DNA from: a virus
Direction: 5' to 3' (one strand)
IMG/VR virus record: IMGVR_UViG_3300036760_000327
Coordinates: 42,487 to 106,486 of that record
DNA length: 64,000 bases
The translations under genes and the position numbers were made by a program. Below are positions 5,760 through 61,437 of the stretch, piece after piece. The notes beneath the pieces were generated by a model. It was not told the DNA's origin and did no database searches. It saw nothing but the letters and a program-made list of their open reading frames with translations. Every line of letters begins with the position of its first letter. Within the stretch, counting starts at the first letter, position 1.

Positions 5760-6280
5760 AAATTTACCAAATATAAAGTATGATTTCCTTTACTTTTAAG
5801 AGTATCTATTCCAATAATTTCATTGGAACAAGATTCTAATTCAAATAATGCATCGCTACATATAAAATATCTAGTATGTTCTTTAAGCCAACAAATCAAA
5901 TTTTTTCTCCATACTAAATTTTCATCTGGTAACATATCCCATCGTCGCCACGTTTCTAGCATTAAAGTTAAATCAAAATTATTATTATAAGTATTAATAA
6001 AATCTTGAAATGTAGTATGATAAAATTTAATATTATTATATTTCGTCCATTCATCATATGTCCATATATCCACACCTTGACAAATAGTATTTGGAAATTT
6101 TTTGCTCAAACCGAAAAGAACATAACCCTTGCCACAGCACAAATCAAGTATATTATGAGGACGTATATTTCTATTTATAAGTGCTTCAAAGATTTTATAT
6201 CCTCGTCCAATTCCTTCTTCTTCATTATTATTCTCGTCATTTCCCCATACTCTTTTAATTTCCATATCGCCTTCTGTCAA
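5750..6280 (-). CDS. class I SAM-dependent methyltransferase
   Basis: motif I 'ILDLCCGKG' and 'GVD'. Confidence 0.7.
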   Translation of the reverse strand: MTEGDMEIKRVWGNDENNNEEEGIGRGYKIFEALINRNIRPHNILDLCCGKGYVLFGLSKKFPNTICQGVDIWTYDEWTKYNNIKFYHTTFQDFINTYNNNFDLTLMLETWRRWDMLPDENLVWRKNLICWLKEHTRYFICSDALFELESCSNEIIGIDTLKSKGNHTLYLVNLCI

Positions 6281-6440
6281 TTTAATTCCTCCAATAATAT
6301 ATTACAAGGTTGCCCACATAAAGAACATATATAATAACAAGTGCCTATTTTTTGTTTCTTTACATCTTCTCCAATAAAATCAGGCATATCTGAAAATACT
6401 ATTAATACTTCGGCTTGGCAACATGTACTTAGATTGGTAT

Positions 6441-6935
6441 TCATTTTACTGCCCTTAAAATAAAGACTATATTATAAATTATATTTAAATAATGTTTTTT
6501 AGCAAATTCTAATTCTTTACCGGATAATTTTTGTCCCTCTGGTGTCAGGGTTTCAATTAATTGGACTAGATCAAATTTTCCAGTGTAAGTATAATGTGGA
6601 ACTTGTTTTTGTCGGCAATCAAGATACTCATAGGTTCTGTGAGTCCAATACTTTTTATGTGTTGGATCTCTAAAGGCTGATTCGCAACCCCAATACGGCA
6701 CTTGTATTTCAACCAAAGCTCCAGGCATACAAACGCGATAAATTTCTCCCATAATCCTTAAGGGGTTATCCACATGTTCAAAAAAGTAAATAGCTCTTAC
6801 TGCTGCTACACTATTGTCCTCAAAGGGTAAATCTTCATTTTCTAAATCACATATAATCTCAGCTGGTGGAAGTTTATCTACCCCAATCCATCCTGGTAAA
6901 CATTGATTTCCACAACCAATATCTAATTTAATCAT
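6441..6935 (-). CDS. SAM-dependent methyltransferase (type 11-like)
   Basis: 'KLDIGCG', 'LPFEDNSV', 'FEHV', 'EIYRVC', 'DPTH'. Confidence 0.85.
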   Translation of the reverse strand: MIKLDIGCGNQCLPGWIGVDKLPPAEIICDLENEDLPFEDNSVAAVRAIYFFEHVDNPLRIMGEIYRVCMPGALVEIQVPYWGCESAFRDPTHKKYWTHRTYEYLDCRQKQVPHYTYTGKFDLVQLIETLTPEGQKLSGKELEFAKKHYLNIIYNIVFILRAVK

Positions 6936-16624: not shown

Positions 16625-16866
16625 ACCTTAAACACCGTCCCTTCGATCAAAGTTTTTAAATTCGAGAGTGACACTAAAGGATTCTCAACAATTATTTTTC
16701 TCATCTGCCCAAATAATAACTGCTCTACTTCATCAAGAGAATCAGGAACCAAAGCTTCCCTTAGTTCCTGAATCGTTGTAACTTTGGTCATGGTTTTTGT
16801 GCCCGATGTATAGGTTAATATTACATGAGAACACGGAAGCTTATTAATTTTTACTGTGACGTCCAT
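16621..16866 (-). CDS. hypothetical protein
   Basis: ORF coupled to the next gene by an ATGA overlap. Confidence 0.5.
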   Translation of the reverse strand: MDVTVKINKLPCSHVILTYTSGTKTMTKVTTIQELREALVPDSLDEVEQLLFGQMRKIIVENPLVSLSNLKTLIEGTVFKV

Positions 16867-16924
16867 ATCTATTTCCCTACTTTGATAATCTCAAATTTCC
16901 TGGGAGTGTAGCCGCCGATATTTT

Positions 16925-17242
16925 TTATCTCATTTCTTTTCCACTAACCCCCAATTTTCCAGCATCCATAGAAAGTTCAAAGTGTCTGCATTGACAAATC
17001 CGACATTTGAAAATCGTAAGATCGGGTTTATCACTCGGTTGAAGTTCAAGATTTTCGGGATTTTTACAACAGTCCTTCCGTTTATCATCTTGTTCTTTTG
17101 CCAAAACCTCTAACTCATGGGTGATCTCTATGATTGGATCATTATTATGATCCCCTTCTTCAGTTGAAATAAACCAATTATCATTTAGAATAGAAAGCAA
17201 TCTTCCCATGAGTTCGGCTGAAATATTGTATGTCTTAATCAT
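16925..17242 (-). CDS. hypothetical Cys-containing protein
   Basis: 'DCCKNPENL...CRICQCRHFE'; start MIKTY after AAGGGG. Confidence 0.5.
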   Translation of the reverse strand: MIKTYNISAELMGRLLSILNDNWFISTEEGDHNNDPIIEITHELEVLAKEQDDKRKDCCKNPENLELQPSDKPDLTIFKCRICQCRHFELSMDAGKLGVSGKEMR

Positions 17243-17252
17243 TTTGACCCCC

Positions 17253-17723
17253 TTATGCAAGTTGTTTACGTGGACGTGGGCCGATAAGTGGCCCATGTGC
17301 CCTATATTTTCGCATATAACAAGTCTGACATAGTCCCATTCCAGCTATTCTTTTGTCTGGATGGCATGTTGCAGTCCAATGGATTCCTCGGGGAGCACGA
17401 TGTGAAGTCATCTTTTTCCATTGTTCAATAATAAATCGAATCTTTTCCCTTCTTCTTTCACCCAAAAATTGATATAATGTCATCATCCATCCAATGGCTC
17501 GTGATCCATAAATCCCGCATTTCCATGTTGGTTTATGGTTTTTTCTTTTCCAATAGTAAGGCTTTTCTGGACTTTTTACTCCCAACAAAAAGGCTGCACG
17601 GATTACAATATCACAATCTGTCATCTGCAAGCCTATGACGGGCCACTTTTTGTCTTTTAGACCGAACCAACCTTCACCCTCTAAAAGACCAGCTAACCAT
17701 GCAATGTCCATTATACGTTTCAT
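17253..17723 (-). CDS. free-standing LAGLIDADG homing endonuclease with C-terminal Cys/His motif
   Basis: 'IAWLAGLLEGEG', 'MTDCDIV'; no intron core seen in the flanks. Confidence 0.8.
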   Translation of the reverse strand: MKRIMDIAWLAGLLEGEGWFGLKDKKWPVIGLQMTDCDIVIRAAFLLGVKSPEKPYYWKRKNHKPTWKCGIYGSRAIGWMMTLYQFLGERRREKIRFIIEQWKKMTSHRAPRGIHWTATCHPDKRIAGMGLCQTCYMRKYRAHGPLIGPRPRKQLA

Positions 17724-41133: not shown

Positions 41134-44100
41134 TTAGCCGGTTACCCCGGTCAACAACCCGTGCTTTTCTTCGTTGTGGAATTCAAATCCGACTTCGCAG
41201 ATGTATTGCAATTTGTTGCTGTCTTTTCAGACGAGTCAAACATTTCTGTTGACTTCTTAATGTTCCCATTAAGTTCGGACTGTGTCTTCTGATCATTAAG
41301 ATCTGGGCTATGTACAGTCTCTACAGGAATTATAAGATCATAAGTTCTATTAATTTTATCTACTTTTTTGATTAAAGAATTAAACGCTTTTGTATATTCT
41401 TTATCATGCACATATCCATTGTCTTTAACTAATGTATTTCTATAATTTAAGAAACTACATATCAAATCAGCAATGGATTTTTTTAAGCCCACCATACATT
41501 TCCTAGTAATGTTTAAAATTCTATGAACATCATTAAACTTTGATATTACCAAACGGTAACATTGTCTAGTTCTTAGTCCATTTGGATTGGATACTGAATA
41601 TATTTTAACTGGATGCTCTAGTTCTTTCTCAAAAACTGATTTAGCCCAATTAATAATACCTATATCAGTATTACTAATCTCTATTCCAAGATGCGGCGAA
41701 CTTAAACAATTCTCACCAGTTCGTTTGTATGGTCTGCATACTCTAATTGAACCTTCTGATTCAATCAACATGCTTAATCTGGCGACGTCTTTAAGCTTCA
41801 TAAAAAGCACCTCCTTGGCATGTCTTACGATCTGATTATTTCCCTCGGCGTTGTCCATTCTAGGACTTTCACCGATTAAATAGCCTTTTACAAGGACCAA
41901 TTGTCGATCCTTCACGAAATCGTCCCCTGGATGTTGAATATCAGCTTCCATGGTCACGTCTCTATTTTGTAAGAAACGATAGACCATTTCATCTAACTTC
42001 AATCCAAAGGCATATCCACCATAAAGAGCGGTATTGCTAACAGAACCAGCATTCTCTAACATATAATCCTTAATCAGATTCAAGGTTCCATGAGGAGAAA
42101 GGTATTGCGCTATCGCAATTCCGTACGTTCTATCTTTGGGGTACATTTGAAGTTTTCCTTGTGCCCACTGGCTGATTACTGAAATAATCAGCGGGGATGC
42201 AAACAGATAAACTTCATCTCCACCAAAGCGCGTCACTGTCCTAATGAATGCCTCAAAATCTGCTTCAGTAAGGATTCCACCCACTGCTGTAACGTTAGTG
42301 TTGATAAAGAAATCAGCTCCACCAGATGTCCGTCTAGCATGGGTAATAGTAGAATCTAATCCCGAAGAAGTGTCTTCTAATCTTTCTCCGTACAAAGCCA
42401 TTCGCTCGATGTCGCGCATAAGCTCGATGCCTTTAACTTTCCGCTCGTATGCACGGTAATTTCCGCCATCAATTGTGTTATTCTGAATCCTTAAGATTCA
42501 ACTCTTTGCATCGCTGCAAAGTTCGGACTGTATCATCATCCATCCCTAATGGAATGGATGCCTTACGTGCGGTCTCTGAGGAAATATATTTAGGTTTGCG
42601 CTGTATTTCATACCGTTCAAACCAACGATTAATTTGTTCTTCAGAAATTGTTTTTCGTAAATTCGTATAGCCTTGTTGTTGCCTCCACTTAATATATTCT
42701 AGCAAAAACATAGCTAAGTATTTCTTATTTCGCAAATAGGGTAAAATAGCATTTAAAAACTTTTTACAGGTATTTAGCCCATTTGATTCGATCTTAAGAG
42801 CCATATTCCATTTTTTATTTCTAAGATTATTCTTTTGCAAACTAAAATGAAAGTTAATGCTTAAAGCATACAAAATATTACTAATTTCCTTAATCATTAT
42901 TTCATCACAGTTCGTAACAGAAATACCTGTCGCTATCCATCCATATTTATGACCGGATGATTTATCCATATCTTTCTTTCTGAAAAACATGATGGAACCT
43001 TCTCCATCAATAATACCAGCTAACCAAGCTAAATCGGTATCTTTTATAATCATTTTATATCTCCTGCTGATTAACCCCACCTTTCTCTTTTACCAAACAG
43101 GTGGAAAGGATACTGGGTTTTTCCAGCATTTTATAAGGTTTTCATTATATCATTACTGATATACGCTGCATGCCTTATACAGCTCGGAATTTAACATAGT
43201 ATTAGTCACCTCAACGGATTTTCTAATAGTCTGTAAATAGTTATAGACTCTTGCGGCTTTGCGACTCTTTGTATAAAGAGCAGTAGAAGGAGATCCTTCT
43301 TCAAAGGCTGCACCGATGATCACCATCGTTGCTGCATTGGCTGCCGAGGCCGCGGCTGTAGCACCATAAGCTCTAATAGCTGTTACAGCGCACGCTGCTG
43401 TAGCTGTTACTAAAATAACTTCGCCGGTTGAAGGAATTTTAACCAAGTCATACTTGTTAAAATAATTACCTTCGCCCGAGGCTACAGTTAATCCAGTAGC
43501 TGCTGACGTAGCAGAAGCTGCTAATGAAGACCAACTCGGATTAAGATCCAGATGTGTATTCTAGTCATTACTGACTAGCTCGGACTTTATCATCATCTTG
43601 CGATGTTTCACGTAAAGTCTCTGAGGAACGGAGTTTTGTCAAATCAAGTACGCTATTAGCCAATCGTGGAAGATGTAACATATTATATCTTTCTGCTTTT
43701 GCGAGTTTATGTTTCTCTATTAACTGATTAACATAATCTCGATCAATATAATCTTTATATCTCCCATCAGGTCCGCGGTTTTTTATTAATTGTTCGCGAT
43801 AATTTGCGTATTCTAGCATGATATCTACTTCTGCTTGTTTGGTTTTTAAGTAAGGACGTATCATTTCTATTAATTTTCTACAACTCCCCGTACTATTACA
43901 AACTATTGTAATAGCATGATTTTGTTTACCGTGTAAATTATAAGCATTAATAGTATAATGAAATTTTAGTCCTAACTTATGCCACATTTCACTAACAGCT
44001 CTAATCATATATGGATTAGTATTACAAACCGTAACTATCATAGAGATAAATGTTGCCATATCACTCTTATTTAATTGTTTTCTTGATTGGTAACACAACA

Positions 44101-44840
44101 TTAAACATCCTTCTCCTTCTATGATAGCCGCTAGCCATGCTTTATCTTGCTCTGACAACATATAATTTCCTTTCCTGCTGATTGTCCCGCCAAAGGAATT
44201 GTCACATAATGTATCCTTGACATAGGAGTTTCCAGCATATGGTGAAATTTTATGAGAACAATGTTGTTTATTCTCAGGCCATTCTACTGTAGTGTTGATG
44301 GCTACCCTTTTGTTAAGCTTTGAAACCAAAACGTACAAAGGCATAAATGTTAACTGCAATTTCGTATTACGATTATTTTTGCAGATCAGACTGTCGCATC
44401 ATCTTTCGATGTCTCCTCGCTCAGTCGTTCACGGTGCTTTCGCTTCCGCCCTGTTGTCCATCTCTGGATGTCCAAGTCAATCAGAGGAGATTTATAGCGG
44501 CCCGCTTTGTCAAGCCGCCTCTGGCTGTAAAAGATAAATTTTATCCAAATTTGTTAATGATTTCAATAAGTTATGAAATCATGCTTGCTCATTTCTGTCA
44601 AGCTCTGCATATTCATTTATATGCAGTTCAGACTGTCGCTTCTACTTTCGTAGTCTCTCCACTCAGTCGTTGCAACTGCACGGCTTTCGCCTGCTTGTTG
44701 AGGGTTGCCATCTCAGGTGTTCCCCATTAATCAGGAGAGATTTTATATGACCAAGTAGTTTACCAAGCCATATCCACCACACGTAGATTTGACAATATGT
44801 TTTGTGAGCCTGTTCCGCCCGTTACCATTGTTGCTGCCAT
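41134..44840 (-). CDS. major capsid protein (SU10/DUF5309-like), six exons, 395 aa after splicing
   Basis: Exons 44840-44766, 44545-44513, 44341-44270, 43548-43179, 42469-41907, 41208-41134 total 1188 nt in one frame. Junctions read VVDMA|DKIYLLQPEAA|PLYV...VEWPEN|DLNP...SELY|GGNYRAYERK...MRDIERMALYG...FVKD|QYICEVGFEFHNEEKHGLLTGVTG*. RBS AAGGAGG; follows the scaffold gene. Confidence 0.88.
41151..41801 (-). CDS. intron 5-encoded LAGLIDADG-like endonuclease
   Basis: 'ARLSMLIESEGSI', 'ISNTD'; own RBS AAGGAGG; in frame with exon 5 and runs past the 3' splice site. Confidence 0.75.
   Translation of the reverse strand: MKLKDVARLSMLIESEGSIRVCRPYKRTGENCLSSPHLGIEISNTDIGIINWAKSVFEKELEHPVKIYSVSNPNGLRTRQCYRLVISKFNDVHRILNITRKCMVGLKKSIADLICSFLNYRNTLVKDNGYVHDKEYTKAFNSLIKKVDKINRTYDLIIPVETVHSPDLNDQKTQSELNGNIKKSTEMFDSSEKTATNCNTSAKSDLNSTTKKSTGC
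41209..41906 (-). mobile_element. group I intron 5 of capsid gene (698 nt) with LAGLIDADG-like ORF
   Basis: P1 AAGGAU/GUCCUU with U-G at the splice site, P3 GGCUAU/AUAGCC, P7 GACUGU/ACAGUC, terminal G. Confidence 0.88.
42470..43178 (-). mobile_element. group I intron 4 of capsid gene (709 nt, phase 1) with LAGLIDADG ORF
   Basis: P1 GCUGU/GCAGC places the splice site inside a Tyr codon (T|AT); P3 CCUUAU/GUAAGG; 'CUCAGAGACCG...ACAGUCCGA' core; terminal G. Confidence 0.88.
42478..43053 (-). CDS. intron 4-encoded LAGLIDADG endonuclease
   Basis: 'LAWLAGIIDGEGSI', 'LPYLRNKK'. Confidence 0.85.
   Translation of the reverse strand: MIIKDTDLAWLAGIIDGEGSIMFFRKKDMDKSSGHKYGWIATGISVTNCDEIMIKEISNILYALSINFHFSLQKNNLRNKKWNMALKIESNGLNTCKKFLNAILPYLRNKKYLAMFLLEYIKWRQQQGYTNLRKTISEEQINRWFERYEIQRKPKYISSETARKASIPLGMDDDTVRTLQRCKELNLKDSE
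43549..44269 (-). mobile_element. group I intron 3 of capsid gene (721 nt) with LAGLIDADG ORF
   Basis: P1 GAGAAU/GUUCUC, P3 UUUCAC/GUGAAA, P7 GACUUUA/UAAAGUC, terminal G. Confidence 0.88.
43568..44161 (-). CDS. intron 3-encoded LAGLIDADG endonuclease
   Basis: 'KAWLAAIIEGEGCL', 'IRPYLKTK'; in frame with exon 3. Confidence 0.85.
   Translation of the reverse strand: MLSEQDKAWLAAIIEGEGCLMLCYQSRKQLNKSDMATFISMIVTVCNTNPYMIRAVSEMWHKLGLKFHYTINAYNLHGKQNHAITIVCNSTGSCRKLIEMIRPYLKTKQAEVDIMLEYANYREQLIKNRGPDGRYKDYIDRDYVNQLIEKHKLAKAERYNMLHLPRLANSVLDLTKLRSSETLRETSQDDDKVRASQ
44342..44512 (-). mobile_element. group I intron 2 of capsid gene (171 nt, no ORF)
   Basis: P1 GCGGCU/GGCCGC, P3 UCUCCUC/GAGGAGA, P7 GACUG/CAGUC, P8 CAUC-GAAA-GAUG, P9 CUGCAA/UUGCAG, terminal G. 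Confidence 0.87.
44546..44765 (-). mobile_element. group I intron 1 of capsid gene (220 nt, no ORF)
   Basis: P1 AUAUGGCU/GGUCAUAU, P3 UCUCUCC/GGAGAGA, P7 GACUG/CAGUC, P8 CUAC-GAAA-GUAG, terminal G. Confidence 0.88.
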
Positions 44841-44885
44841 ATAATTTTTCACCTCCTTCTGTCATAGAATAAAATTACAACTGGA

Positions 44886-60434: not shown

Positions 60435-61310
60435 TCAATCAGTATCCAGCCAGCGTTTTATTTCATCTATTCGAGTGAAATAATAATGTACTTCCTTGTC
60501 TTTCAAAAAAATAGCCCTTGCAATACCAACAATCACTGGTGTACCATTCTGATAAACAAACACTGGCGATCCAGAATCTCCAGGAATTAATGGTACATCA
60601 ATAGTAACATCGTACACATTAAACCAGGGCAAGACTTGCGGCATTGAACATGTAGCATAAATGTTTTCTATCTTTCCAGATCTAAGTTCATATAACCATG
60701 TTTTTTGCCCTTCTTCATCTCTTTGAGACACGAGTACAGAAACTGCATCACCTATTTTTAAAACCAAATTTGGATCAGATGTACTAAAGGTATAACTAGT
60801 ATTATATTCTAGTGCAGCCAATCTTTTGGACGGAGCATTTAGTTCCAATATGGCCATATCGTTAGCCAGATCAGTCCATACTATTTCAGCCGTAAGATAA
60901 GGAGAATAAGTATCACCAATAAATATTATTCTTTGTATAATTTTAAATGATCTTGTAATAAAATAAGAAGCAGGATTTTCGGATGGTACAGAAACTGTAG
61001 CGGGTTCTATAACATGAGCAGCCGTTATAATATATAATTTACCCTTTTGGCTTTTTACCACAAATCCAGTACCTTGCATATCGAATATACCTTGTTGCCA
61101 AATTAAATCAATTTTATTCGTTTTTGAATTGTAAACTGGAACTGATCCCATGGCAGAACCGAATGTATAAATATTTACCACGGATCGAGATAAATAATAT
61201 GATCTGTCTTCTTCAAATTCTTTAAATTTACCATGTGTAGAATCAAAAGCAACAACAGTTGCTGTCAATAAAAACAAGGCAACAACGACAGCAAAAATTT
61301 TTTTAAACAT
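60435..61310 (-). CDS. trypsin-like serine protease with signal peptide
   Basis: Triad motifs 'TAAHV', 'DMAIL', 'GDSGSP'; N-terminal 'MFKKIFAVVVALFLLTATVVA'. Confidence 0.85.
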   Translation of the reverse strand: MFKKIFAVVVALFLLTATVVAFDSTHGKFKEFEEDRSYYLSRSVVNIYTFGSAMGSVPVYNSKTNKIDLIWQQGIFDMQGTGFVVKSQKGKLYIITAAHVIEPATVSVPSENPASYFITRSFKIIQRIIFIGDTYSPYLTAEIVWTDLANDMAILELNAPSKRLAALEYNTSYTFSTSDPNLVLKIGDAVSVLVSQRDEEGQKTWLYELRSGKIENIYATCSMPQVLPWFNVYDVTIDVPLIPGDSGSPVFVYQNGTPVIVGIARAIFLKDKEVHYYFTRIDEIKRWLDTD

Positions 61311-61437
61311 TTTTCTTATTGGTCCTCTTGGATTTTTTCTTTCGCTTTTTGCTAACAATTTTCCATGCCATATCTGAAATTTTTAAATTTGGTAAAATAT
61401 TTTGAGTTCCGGTTGCTCCGGTTACCATATTGGCCAT
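61303..61437 (-). CDS. 44-aa capsid N-arm paralog with basic tail (not in ORF track)
   Basis: MANMVTGATGTQNILPNLKISDMAWKIVSKKRKKKSKRTNKKNV; RBS AGGAG; aligns to the capsid N-terminus. Confidence 0.7.
   Translation of the reverse strand: MANMVTGATGTQNILPNLKISDMAWKIVSKKRKKKSKRTNKKNV

Follow-up and report, generated by a model that had tools for sequence, protein, structure and literature searches.

Group I introns of phages lie mostly in DNA-metabolism genes, with one to three introns per gene (PMC11878797, PMC3706429), as a first-pass annotation of the DNA described below had also stated. Such introns split terL, DNA polymerase and nrdD into 2–3 fragments in Jug jumbo phages (PMC12880540) and Bastillevirinae (PMC11878797), with splicing confirmed by RNA reads (PMC12880540, PMC11878797), and up to three introns per gene occur in Twort and Bastillevirinae (PMC11878797). 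The orf142 gene of Staphylococcus phage Twort holds three group I (IA2) introns (Landthaler & Shub 1999, as cited in PMC11878797). Two further phages, the mycobacteriophage LittleE and the lactococcal phage Tuc2009, have been reported to contain introns in their capsid genes (PMC3706429); that of LittleE was described as 'most likely group I', its splicing was demonstrated by reverse transcription polymerase chain reaction and its open reading frame (ORF) resembles a LAGLIDADG endonuclease (PMC3706429). Here we analyse a viral DNA window of 64,000 nucleotides (nt), positions 42,487 to 106,486 of IMG/VR record IMGVR_UViG_3300036760_000327, in which mobile group I introns belonging to two structural classes have, on sequence evidence, very probably entered the single major capsid gene (44840–41134, minus strand) on five occasions. 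This 64-kb window is part of a 106,486-bp genome, rated 100% complete, with direct terminal repeats.

Elements of this type are well known, and five introns in one phage gene are an extreme case; a search of the literature, incomplete in its coverage, turned up no phage gene reported to hold more than three group I introns. The locus resembles Twort in that small ORF-less introns are crowded into one phage gene with short exons between them, but Twort has three introns rather than five, the gene concerned is apparently not a capsid gene and those introns contain no LAGLIDADG genes. With LittleE and Tuc2009 it shares introns of group I type, preceded by U and ending in G, in the major capsid gene; those phages have one intron per gene and in LittleE the ORF is encoded on the opposite strand, whereas the window has five introns of two classes and same-strand ORFs that overlap the ribozyme core. 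The Jug and Bastillevirinae introns are spread over many genes, whereas all five introns of the present genome lie in one gene of 1.2 kb. Fungal mosaic mitochondrial genes of the cox1 type likewise combine many group I introns, LAGLIDADG ORFs fused in frame to the upstream exon and micro-exons, but these are organelle genes, whereas the phage gene is expressed under bacterial-type coupling of transcription and translation and has internal starts led by Shine-Dalgarno sequences.

Exon map and predicted spliced product of the capsid gene

All long ORFs of the window are on the minus strand, as are the features described below. Comparison of five intron-less homologs (P0005, P0006, P0008, P0009 and P0010) with the window by tblastn returned six collinear exon blocks of 75, 33, 72, 370, 563 and 75 nt, separated by five introns (I1–I5) of 220, 171, 721, 709 and 698 nt, with 68% of the locus being intron. 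Exon 1 (44766–44840, 75 nt; tblastn and sequence) encodes amino acids (aa) 1–25 from an ATG at 44840, upstream of which a Shine-Dalgarno sequence, AAGGAGGTG, lies at 44858–44850. Exon 2 (44513–44545) is a micro-exon of 33 nt whose peptide, DKIYLLQPEAA, is a 100% match to aa 26–36 of P0008 and P0009 (tblastn). It is followed by exon 3 (44270–44341, 72 nt; tblastn), by exon 4 (43179–43548, 370 nt; tblastn and Pfam), the last base of which is the first base of a Tyr codon, by exon 5 (41907–42469, 563 nt; Pfam) and by exon 6 (41134–41208; tblastn and Pfam), which consists of 72 nt and the stop codon TAA at 41136–41134.

When joined by script, the exons form 1188 nt encoding 395 aa and a stop, with zero internal stops, and the product aligns over residues 1–395 with residues 1–395 of P0008 (85% identity) and P0009 with zero gaps. 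Exons 4, 5 and 6 match the SU10_MCP profile (PF17236) in abutting pieces (56–99, 101–264 and 264–292), and exon 5 by itself scores above the Pfam cut-off (E 1.5e-12). About a hundred metagenome homologs of exon 5 were found, roughly 390–397 aa long; a tblastn search with exon 5 gave no match in 50,697 GenBank phage records, and no second capsid gene was found in the whole 106,486-bp genome. Compared with L001, its closest relative at 92% aa identity, the gene has a ratio of non-synonymous to synonymous substitution rates (dN/dS) of 0.027, and the exons are under strong purifying selection. Judged by these comparisons, the split gene is the working major capsid gene of the genome, of SU10 type. 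Because the exons are gap-free, dN/dS is low and the complete genome has no other capsid gene, the intervening sequences must leave the RNA.

The first-pass annotation, made from the sequence without database searches, had proposed the five intron lengths, one continuous 395-aa frame with exons as short as 33 nt and a major capsid identity hidden from ORF callers. The tblastn alignments with intron-less homologs confirmed the lengths to the base, and the stop-free joined frame, the gap-free alignment over the full protein and the abutting profile matches agree with the remainder of the proposal. Gene callers do report fragments only at the locus, including a 422-aa ORF with a capsid start and a non-capsid end. 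Protein P0001 (416 aa, window 41151–42419) is a gene-calling artefact that runs from exon 5 across the 5' splice site and on into the endonuclease ORF of I5, and P0054 (568 aa) and P0099 are capsid–endonuclease fusions of the same kind in relatives. Among 101 homolog clusters (P0001 left aside), 27 are shorter or longer than the intron-less reference, and in many the change coincides with a mapped intron site; contig ends may account for some of the altered clusters. Elsewhere in the window, a 44-aa ORF (61303–61437) that starts MANMVTGATGTQNILPNLKISDMAWKI... copies the capsid N-terminus in this first part and has a poly-lysine tail; its 'DMAW' corresponds to exon 1 read one codon into I1, and the next residues, 'KI', match exon 2.

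Splice sites and ribozyme classes

A T ends the exon before each of the five introns and a G closes each intron. The boundaries of I1, I2 and I3 are each uniquely set by the protein alignment; three equivalent placements exist for I4 and two for I5, and exactly one of each yields U...G. In the order of I1 to I5, the predicted exon junctions are GCT|GAT, GCT|CCT, AAT|GAT, T|AT and GAT|CAA; the peptide over the first two would read DMA|DKIYLLQPEAA|PLYV, and T|AT (Tyr) is the phase-1 junction that connects exons 4 and 5. All five introns have a P1 helix, in which the last 5–8 exon nt pair with a guide sequence located 10–14 nt into the intron and a U·G pair is placed at the splice site (shuffle p-values of 0.008, 0.020, 0.010, 0.090 and 0.035 for I1 to I5); P1 of I1, for example, is formed by AUAUGGCU, which ends at the splice site, and GGUCAUAU. 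The guide changes along with the exon in introns of relatives, as judged by eye (UUUGCU/GGCAAA in L010, UACUUGUU/GACAAGUA in L027 and CUACGGU/GCCGUAG in L042). In-frame stops are found 1, 0 and 8 codons past the 5' splice site in I1, I2 and I4, with I1 starting on an in-frame stop after one codon (TGG TAA) and I2 opening directly with an in-frame TGA; an early in-frame stop that clears ribosomes from the ribozyme is the usual arrangement of phage introns. The exon-terminal U, the U·G pair in P1, the terminal G and the phase-1 junction had all been read from the sequence in the first pass, together with P3 and P7 pairings, and every one of them was recovered, P8 in addition.

Class 1 comprises I3 (43549–44269, 721 nt; R1 and R2 models, described below), I4 (42470–43178, 709 nt, with a P2 hairpin; R1, R2, RF00028 and fold) and I5 (41209–41906, 698 nt, a class 1 variant; R1, R2, RF00028 and same-site homologs), together with introns of the related loci L001, L010, L027, L033, L042 and L009. 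Their layout, AUGCUGGAAA...AAUCAGCAGG...UCAGAGACU..ACG-P3'-P8-GAUGAUA.AGUCCGA-P9...UAACA-N4-5-G, follows the P/Q/R/S order of the consensus of the Rfam group I family RF00028. I3–I5 share with that consensus P ('AUGCUGGAAA'), Q ('AAUCAGCAGG'), R ('UCAGAGACU..ACG') and S ('GAUGAUA.AGUCCGA'), as well as the order P7-P3'-P8-P7'-P9 and the terminal G, and the strands (GACU.../...AGUC) of P7, the helix expected to hold the guanosine-binding site, agree with it; they differ from it by an ORF of ~500 nt between Q and R, and I1 and I2 are not recognised by the family model. At least 120 viral contigs contain the R...S motif, which in 7 of 20 contigs tested falls within an RF00028 match that exceeds the gathering score (52–91 bits). 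From such Rfam-verified introns, a 3'-half model (R1, 11 introns) and a 5'-half model (R2, 10 of those) were built. The top R1 matches in the window are I3 (6e-10), I5 (1e-9), I4 (1.5e-8) and I1 (2e-4), and those of R2 are I3 (1.4e-7) and I4 (2.2e-5); with filters off, R2 also matches the 5' part of I5 (E 5.6e-4, 231 nt searched). Across the genome, R1 finds no introns outside the capsid gene. The 5' cores (P3-P4-P5-P4' in I3) are located at 44251–44173 in I3, 43142–43062 in I4 and 41889–41842 in I5, and the 3' cores (P7-P3'-P8-P7'-P9 in I3) at 43626–43561, 42581–42504 and 41326–41256, respectively.

Class 2 is represented by the two ORF-less introns I1 (44546–44765, 220 nt; R3 and R1 models and P1 statistics) and I2 (44342–44512, 171 nt; R3 and R1 models), which share AAAUCUC.CCUGAUU...CGACUGAG-P3'-P8-GCGACAGUCUGA. 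The core of this class (CGACUGAG...GACAGUCUGA) recurs in at least 120 IMG/VR viral contigs (L164–L283), and RF00028 detects it in 0 of 20 contigs tested, as well as in neither I1 nor I2. An alignment of 34 non-redundant members, excluding the window, supplied model R3 and has a pseudoknotted P3-P4-P5-P6-P7-P8 core in which 95.4% of cells are paired, against 38–50% with the partners slid. Changes on both sides are seen in 19 of the 26 core pairs, and P7 is invariant because the search pattern fixed it. R3 matches only I2 (107.6 bits, E 5e-22) and I1 (88.6 bits, E 8e-18) in the window, and R1 with filters off matches I2 with E 6.6e-4. The I1 core (44743–44628) is followed by P9, P9.1 and P9.2, and I2 consists of P1, a 108-nt core (P3, P4, P5, P6, P7 and P8), P9 and a 12-nt tail, without P2, P9.1 or P9.2.

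Searches with I1 and I2 by blastn of the 50,697 GenBank phage records gave only two weak, unannotated matches, and the class 2 model had no match in phages T4 or SPO1. The same model gives three adjacent weak matches on phage Twort, at 16815–17410 in an unannotated gap, which we infer to hold the known three-intron gene. The Twort introns show, by eye, the same layout (AAA-P3-J3/4-P4...CAACGACU...AGUCUGAAC-P9...UAACA-N4-5-G), and differ in having extra sequence between P7 and P8 (P7.1/P7.2, by eye) that is absent from I1 and I2. We assign I1 and I2, by these comparisons, to a second, widespread class of phage intron; as RF00028 misses this class, surveys based on RF00028 under-count phage introns.

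The five intervening sequences are, as assigned from P1, the terminal G, the class models and covariation, group I introns, in line with the first-pass identification. Several results weigh against this assignment. At the gathering score (50 bits for RF00028), Rfam returned no match over the entire window, RF00028 included, and at E ≤ 10 it gave no group I match over 6.5 kb and over 451 nt. The Rfam search that the first pass had put forward as a check was thus negative at the curated threshold; below that threshold, RF00028 scores I4 at 39.4 bits with E 6e-10 and I5 at 21.2 bits with E 1.7e-4. I3–I5 fall below the cut-off because of the ~500-nt endonuclease ORF between Q and R. The contigs used to train R1 and R2 were retrieved with a motif from relatives of the capsid locus, so matches to these models are partly circular, with the training introns themselves verified independently by Rfam. 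What places I1 and I2 in group I is their topology and covariation, together with weak links to model R1 and to the Twort introns, and not a curated model. Finally, the P4-P6 domains are minimal and have no P5abc-type extension, and unaided self-splicing is therefore not assured.

Four other identities were considered and rejected. Inteins do not fit lengths of 220, 721, 709 and 698 nt, which are not multiples of 3, or in-frame stops within 0–8 codons in I1, I2 and I4. Group II introns were rejected on the lack of any Rfam group II match or domain V and on ORFs that are LAGLIDADG rather than reverse transcriptase. The intervening sequences are far too long for translational bypassing and carry ribozyme cores, and an assembly chimera is at odds with the precision of the insertions and with the presence of the same intron families at the same sites in other contigs.

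Endonuclease genes and intron mobility

One intact ORF of about 190–216 aa with a single LAGLIDADG motif is present in each of I3 (LAAIIEGEG), I4 (LAGIIDGEG) and I5 (SMLIESEG). The I3 ORF (44161–43568) can also be read in frame from exon 3, the I-CreI-like I4 ORF lies at 43080/43053–42478, and the LAGLIDADG-like I5 ORF (41801–41151) is open in frame from exon 5, with a tail that extends past the 3' splice site; those of I3 and I5 each have their own ribosome-binding site and ATG, a Shine-Dalgarno sequence in the case of I5. By BLAST, the intron ORFs are related to each other and to ORFs in the introns of relatives. A predicted model of the I4 endonuclease (predicted local distance difference test score 82.4, predicted template modelling score 0.73) matches I-CreI, I-CvuI and I-MsoI with probability 1.00 and target-normalised template modelling scores of 0.65–0.68. 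On this model, the I4 ORF has the I-CreI-type LAGLIDADG fold, of alpha-beta-beta-alpha-beta-beta-alpha order, and the I3 and I5 ORFs are its sequence relatives. The I4 endonuclease shares with these homodimeric enzymes the single motif, the fold and a location in a group I intron, but differs in its 14–19% sequence identity to them and in an extra C-terminal stretch of ~40 aa that doubles as ribozyme P7, P3', P8 and P7'. This overlap is general to class 1, in which the last ~40 codons of the ORF cover P7, P3', P8 and P7' in a conserved frame, with UCAGAGACU read as Ser-Glu-Thr and GAUGAUGAUA.AGUCCGA as Asp-Asp-Asp-x-Val-Arg (peptides 'SETxR' and 'DDDxVR').

The capsid gene of the related loci that were fetched is mostly intron-free, with a few having one intron, and in L001 one of the five sites is occupied and the other four are empty. 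Since most relatives have either no intron or one, the introns are dispensable mobile elements, and relative to intron-less alleles their insertions are base-precise. The I2 site (codons 36/37) is occupied in the window by a class 2 intron of 171 nt without an ORF and in L001 (3807–4556) by a class 1 LAGLIDADG intron of 750 nt, which suggests intron replacement or recombination between classes. The first ~33 nt of these two introns are alike (P1 loop, guide, AUAAA, P3 and CUGAU) and the remainder is not. Further introns are placed five codons upstream of the I2 site in L010, L013 and L027, and near aa 300–310 in L042 and L033. I5-type introns with a homologous endonuclease follow aa 374 in P0099 (91% identity) and P0054 (65%), and the finding of one intron and its endonuclease at a single position in separate lineages leads us to predict that the endonucleases cut intron-less alleles.

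The late pre-mRNA would undergo five guanosine-initiated splicing reactions to give a 1188-nt mRNA for the 395-aa capsid protein, with the guide of each intron pairing with the last 5–8 nt of the upstream exon, U·G marking the cleavage site and the terminal G setting the 3' splice site. The early stops in I1, I2 and I4 may release ribosomes and so allow the ribozyme to fold, and the endonuclease frames of I3 and I5 could be entered both from the upstream exon and from an internal start. When relatives co-infect, the I3, I4 and I5 endonucleases would cut intron-less capsid alleles, for L001 at aa 60/61, 185 and 374/375, and repair would copy the intron in; I1 and I2, which have no ORF and lie within about 300 nt of I3, probably spread by co-conversion with it. 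The three capsid-targeting endonucleases could also be regarded as weapons against co-infecting intron-less relatives, which would be ordinary homing seen from the loser's side. We consider this a plausible though rather doubtful addition; if it is true, the introns are more than neutral passengers and the capsid gene is a battleground.

Two free-standing, single-motif LAGLIDADG-like ORFs, D1 (41106–40642, 154 aa) and D2 (40549–40160, 129 aa), identified by PHROG 5046 and BLAST, lie 3' of the capsid gene, before the virion gene that comes next; L001 has a conserved counterpart of D2 (6384–6782). No ribozyme was found near D1 and D2 with the class 2 model R3 and filters off. Syntenic with D1 is a LAGLIDADG ORF of L001 (5642–6322) that starts 6 nt after the capsid stop and overlaps, in its 3' part, a class 2 core at 6095–6208 (51 bits, E 4e-9). 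P9, P9.1 and P9.2 of that core are 82% identical to those of I1, and its window counterpart, D1, is without a ribozyme. No exons were found for the L001 core, possibly an intron that is intergenic or placed in a 3'-untranslated region. Scores for Pfam LAGLIDADG_1 are below the cut-off for the I4 endonuclease and D1, the related L001 ORF passes, and Pfam gave no match on the I3 and I5 endonucleases. PHROG 5046 is labelled 'HNH endonuclease', and the members matched here are LAGLIDADG proteins with an I-CreI-like fold; because the fold search shows LAGLIDADG, we treat this label as a generic misnaming.

Competing explanations and significance

An alternative explanation keeps the group I ancestry of the introns but has them depend on LAGLIDADG maturases or a host factor for splicing, with I1 and I2 served in trans. 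The minimal P4-P6 domains, the 171-nt I2 without peripheral domains and the occurrence of the bI3 LAGLIDADG maturase among the fold matches of the I4 endonuclease (rank 46) speak for such a dependence. The core pairings are complete, however, and class 2 introns that carry no ORF are common across viral contigs and do not require a nearby LAGLIDADG gene. We regard protein-dependent splicing as improbable, with some residual weight.

Considerably less probable is a regulatory role, in which selection would keep five splicing events in order to delay capsid synthesis or tie it to the state of the cell (GTP, Mg2+ or translation). A timing or stress-sensitive gate on capsid production had been suggested in the first pass, and the placement of all five introns in the late gene with the highest expression, with none elsewhere in the genome, could be taken in its favour, as could the unproven idea of phage introns as environmental sensors (PMC11878797). 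The comparison with relatives does not bear this suggestion out: with one site occupied in L001 and none in most homologs, the life cycle does not depend on the introns. Homing endonucleases in three of the introns account for intron presence by themselves, and no regulatory element was found. We therefore give such a gate very little credence.

It is hardly conceivable that the locus is a dead gene, that is, a disrupted pseudogene retaining its intervening sequences in a defective or chimeric assembly, as the report of fragments only by gene callers might imply, given a dN/dS of 0.027, a joined frame without frameshift or stop, the intact state of all ribozyme cores and three endonuclease ORFs, a complete genome with terminal repeats and no second capsid gene, and insertions that are base-precise against intron-less alleles.

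The simplest account is that selfish homing introns have repeatedly invaded a conserved essential gene, in which they are tolerated since they splice. For this clade, phage classification and counting based on the capsid gene will mis-handle its members. At this locus, each of five ribozymes has to choose the correct splice sites in a very highly expressed mRNA, and a 33-nt exon separates two whose cores are near-identical; it is a natural system suited to the study of splicing order, exon skipping and interference between ribosome and ribozyme.

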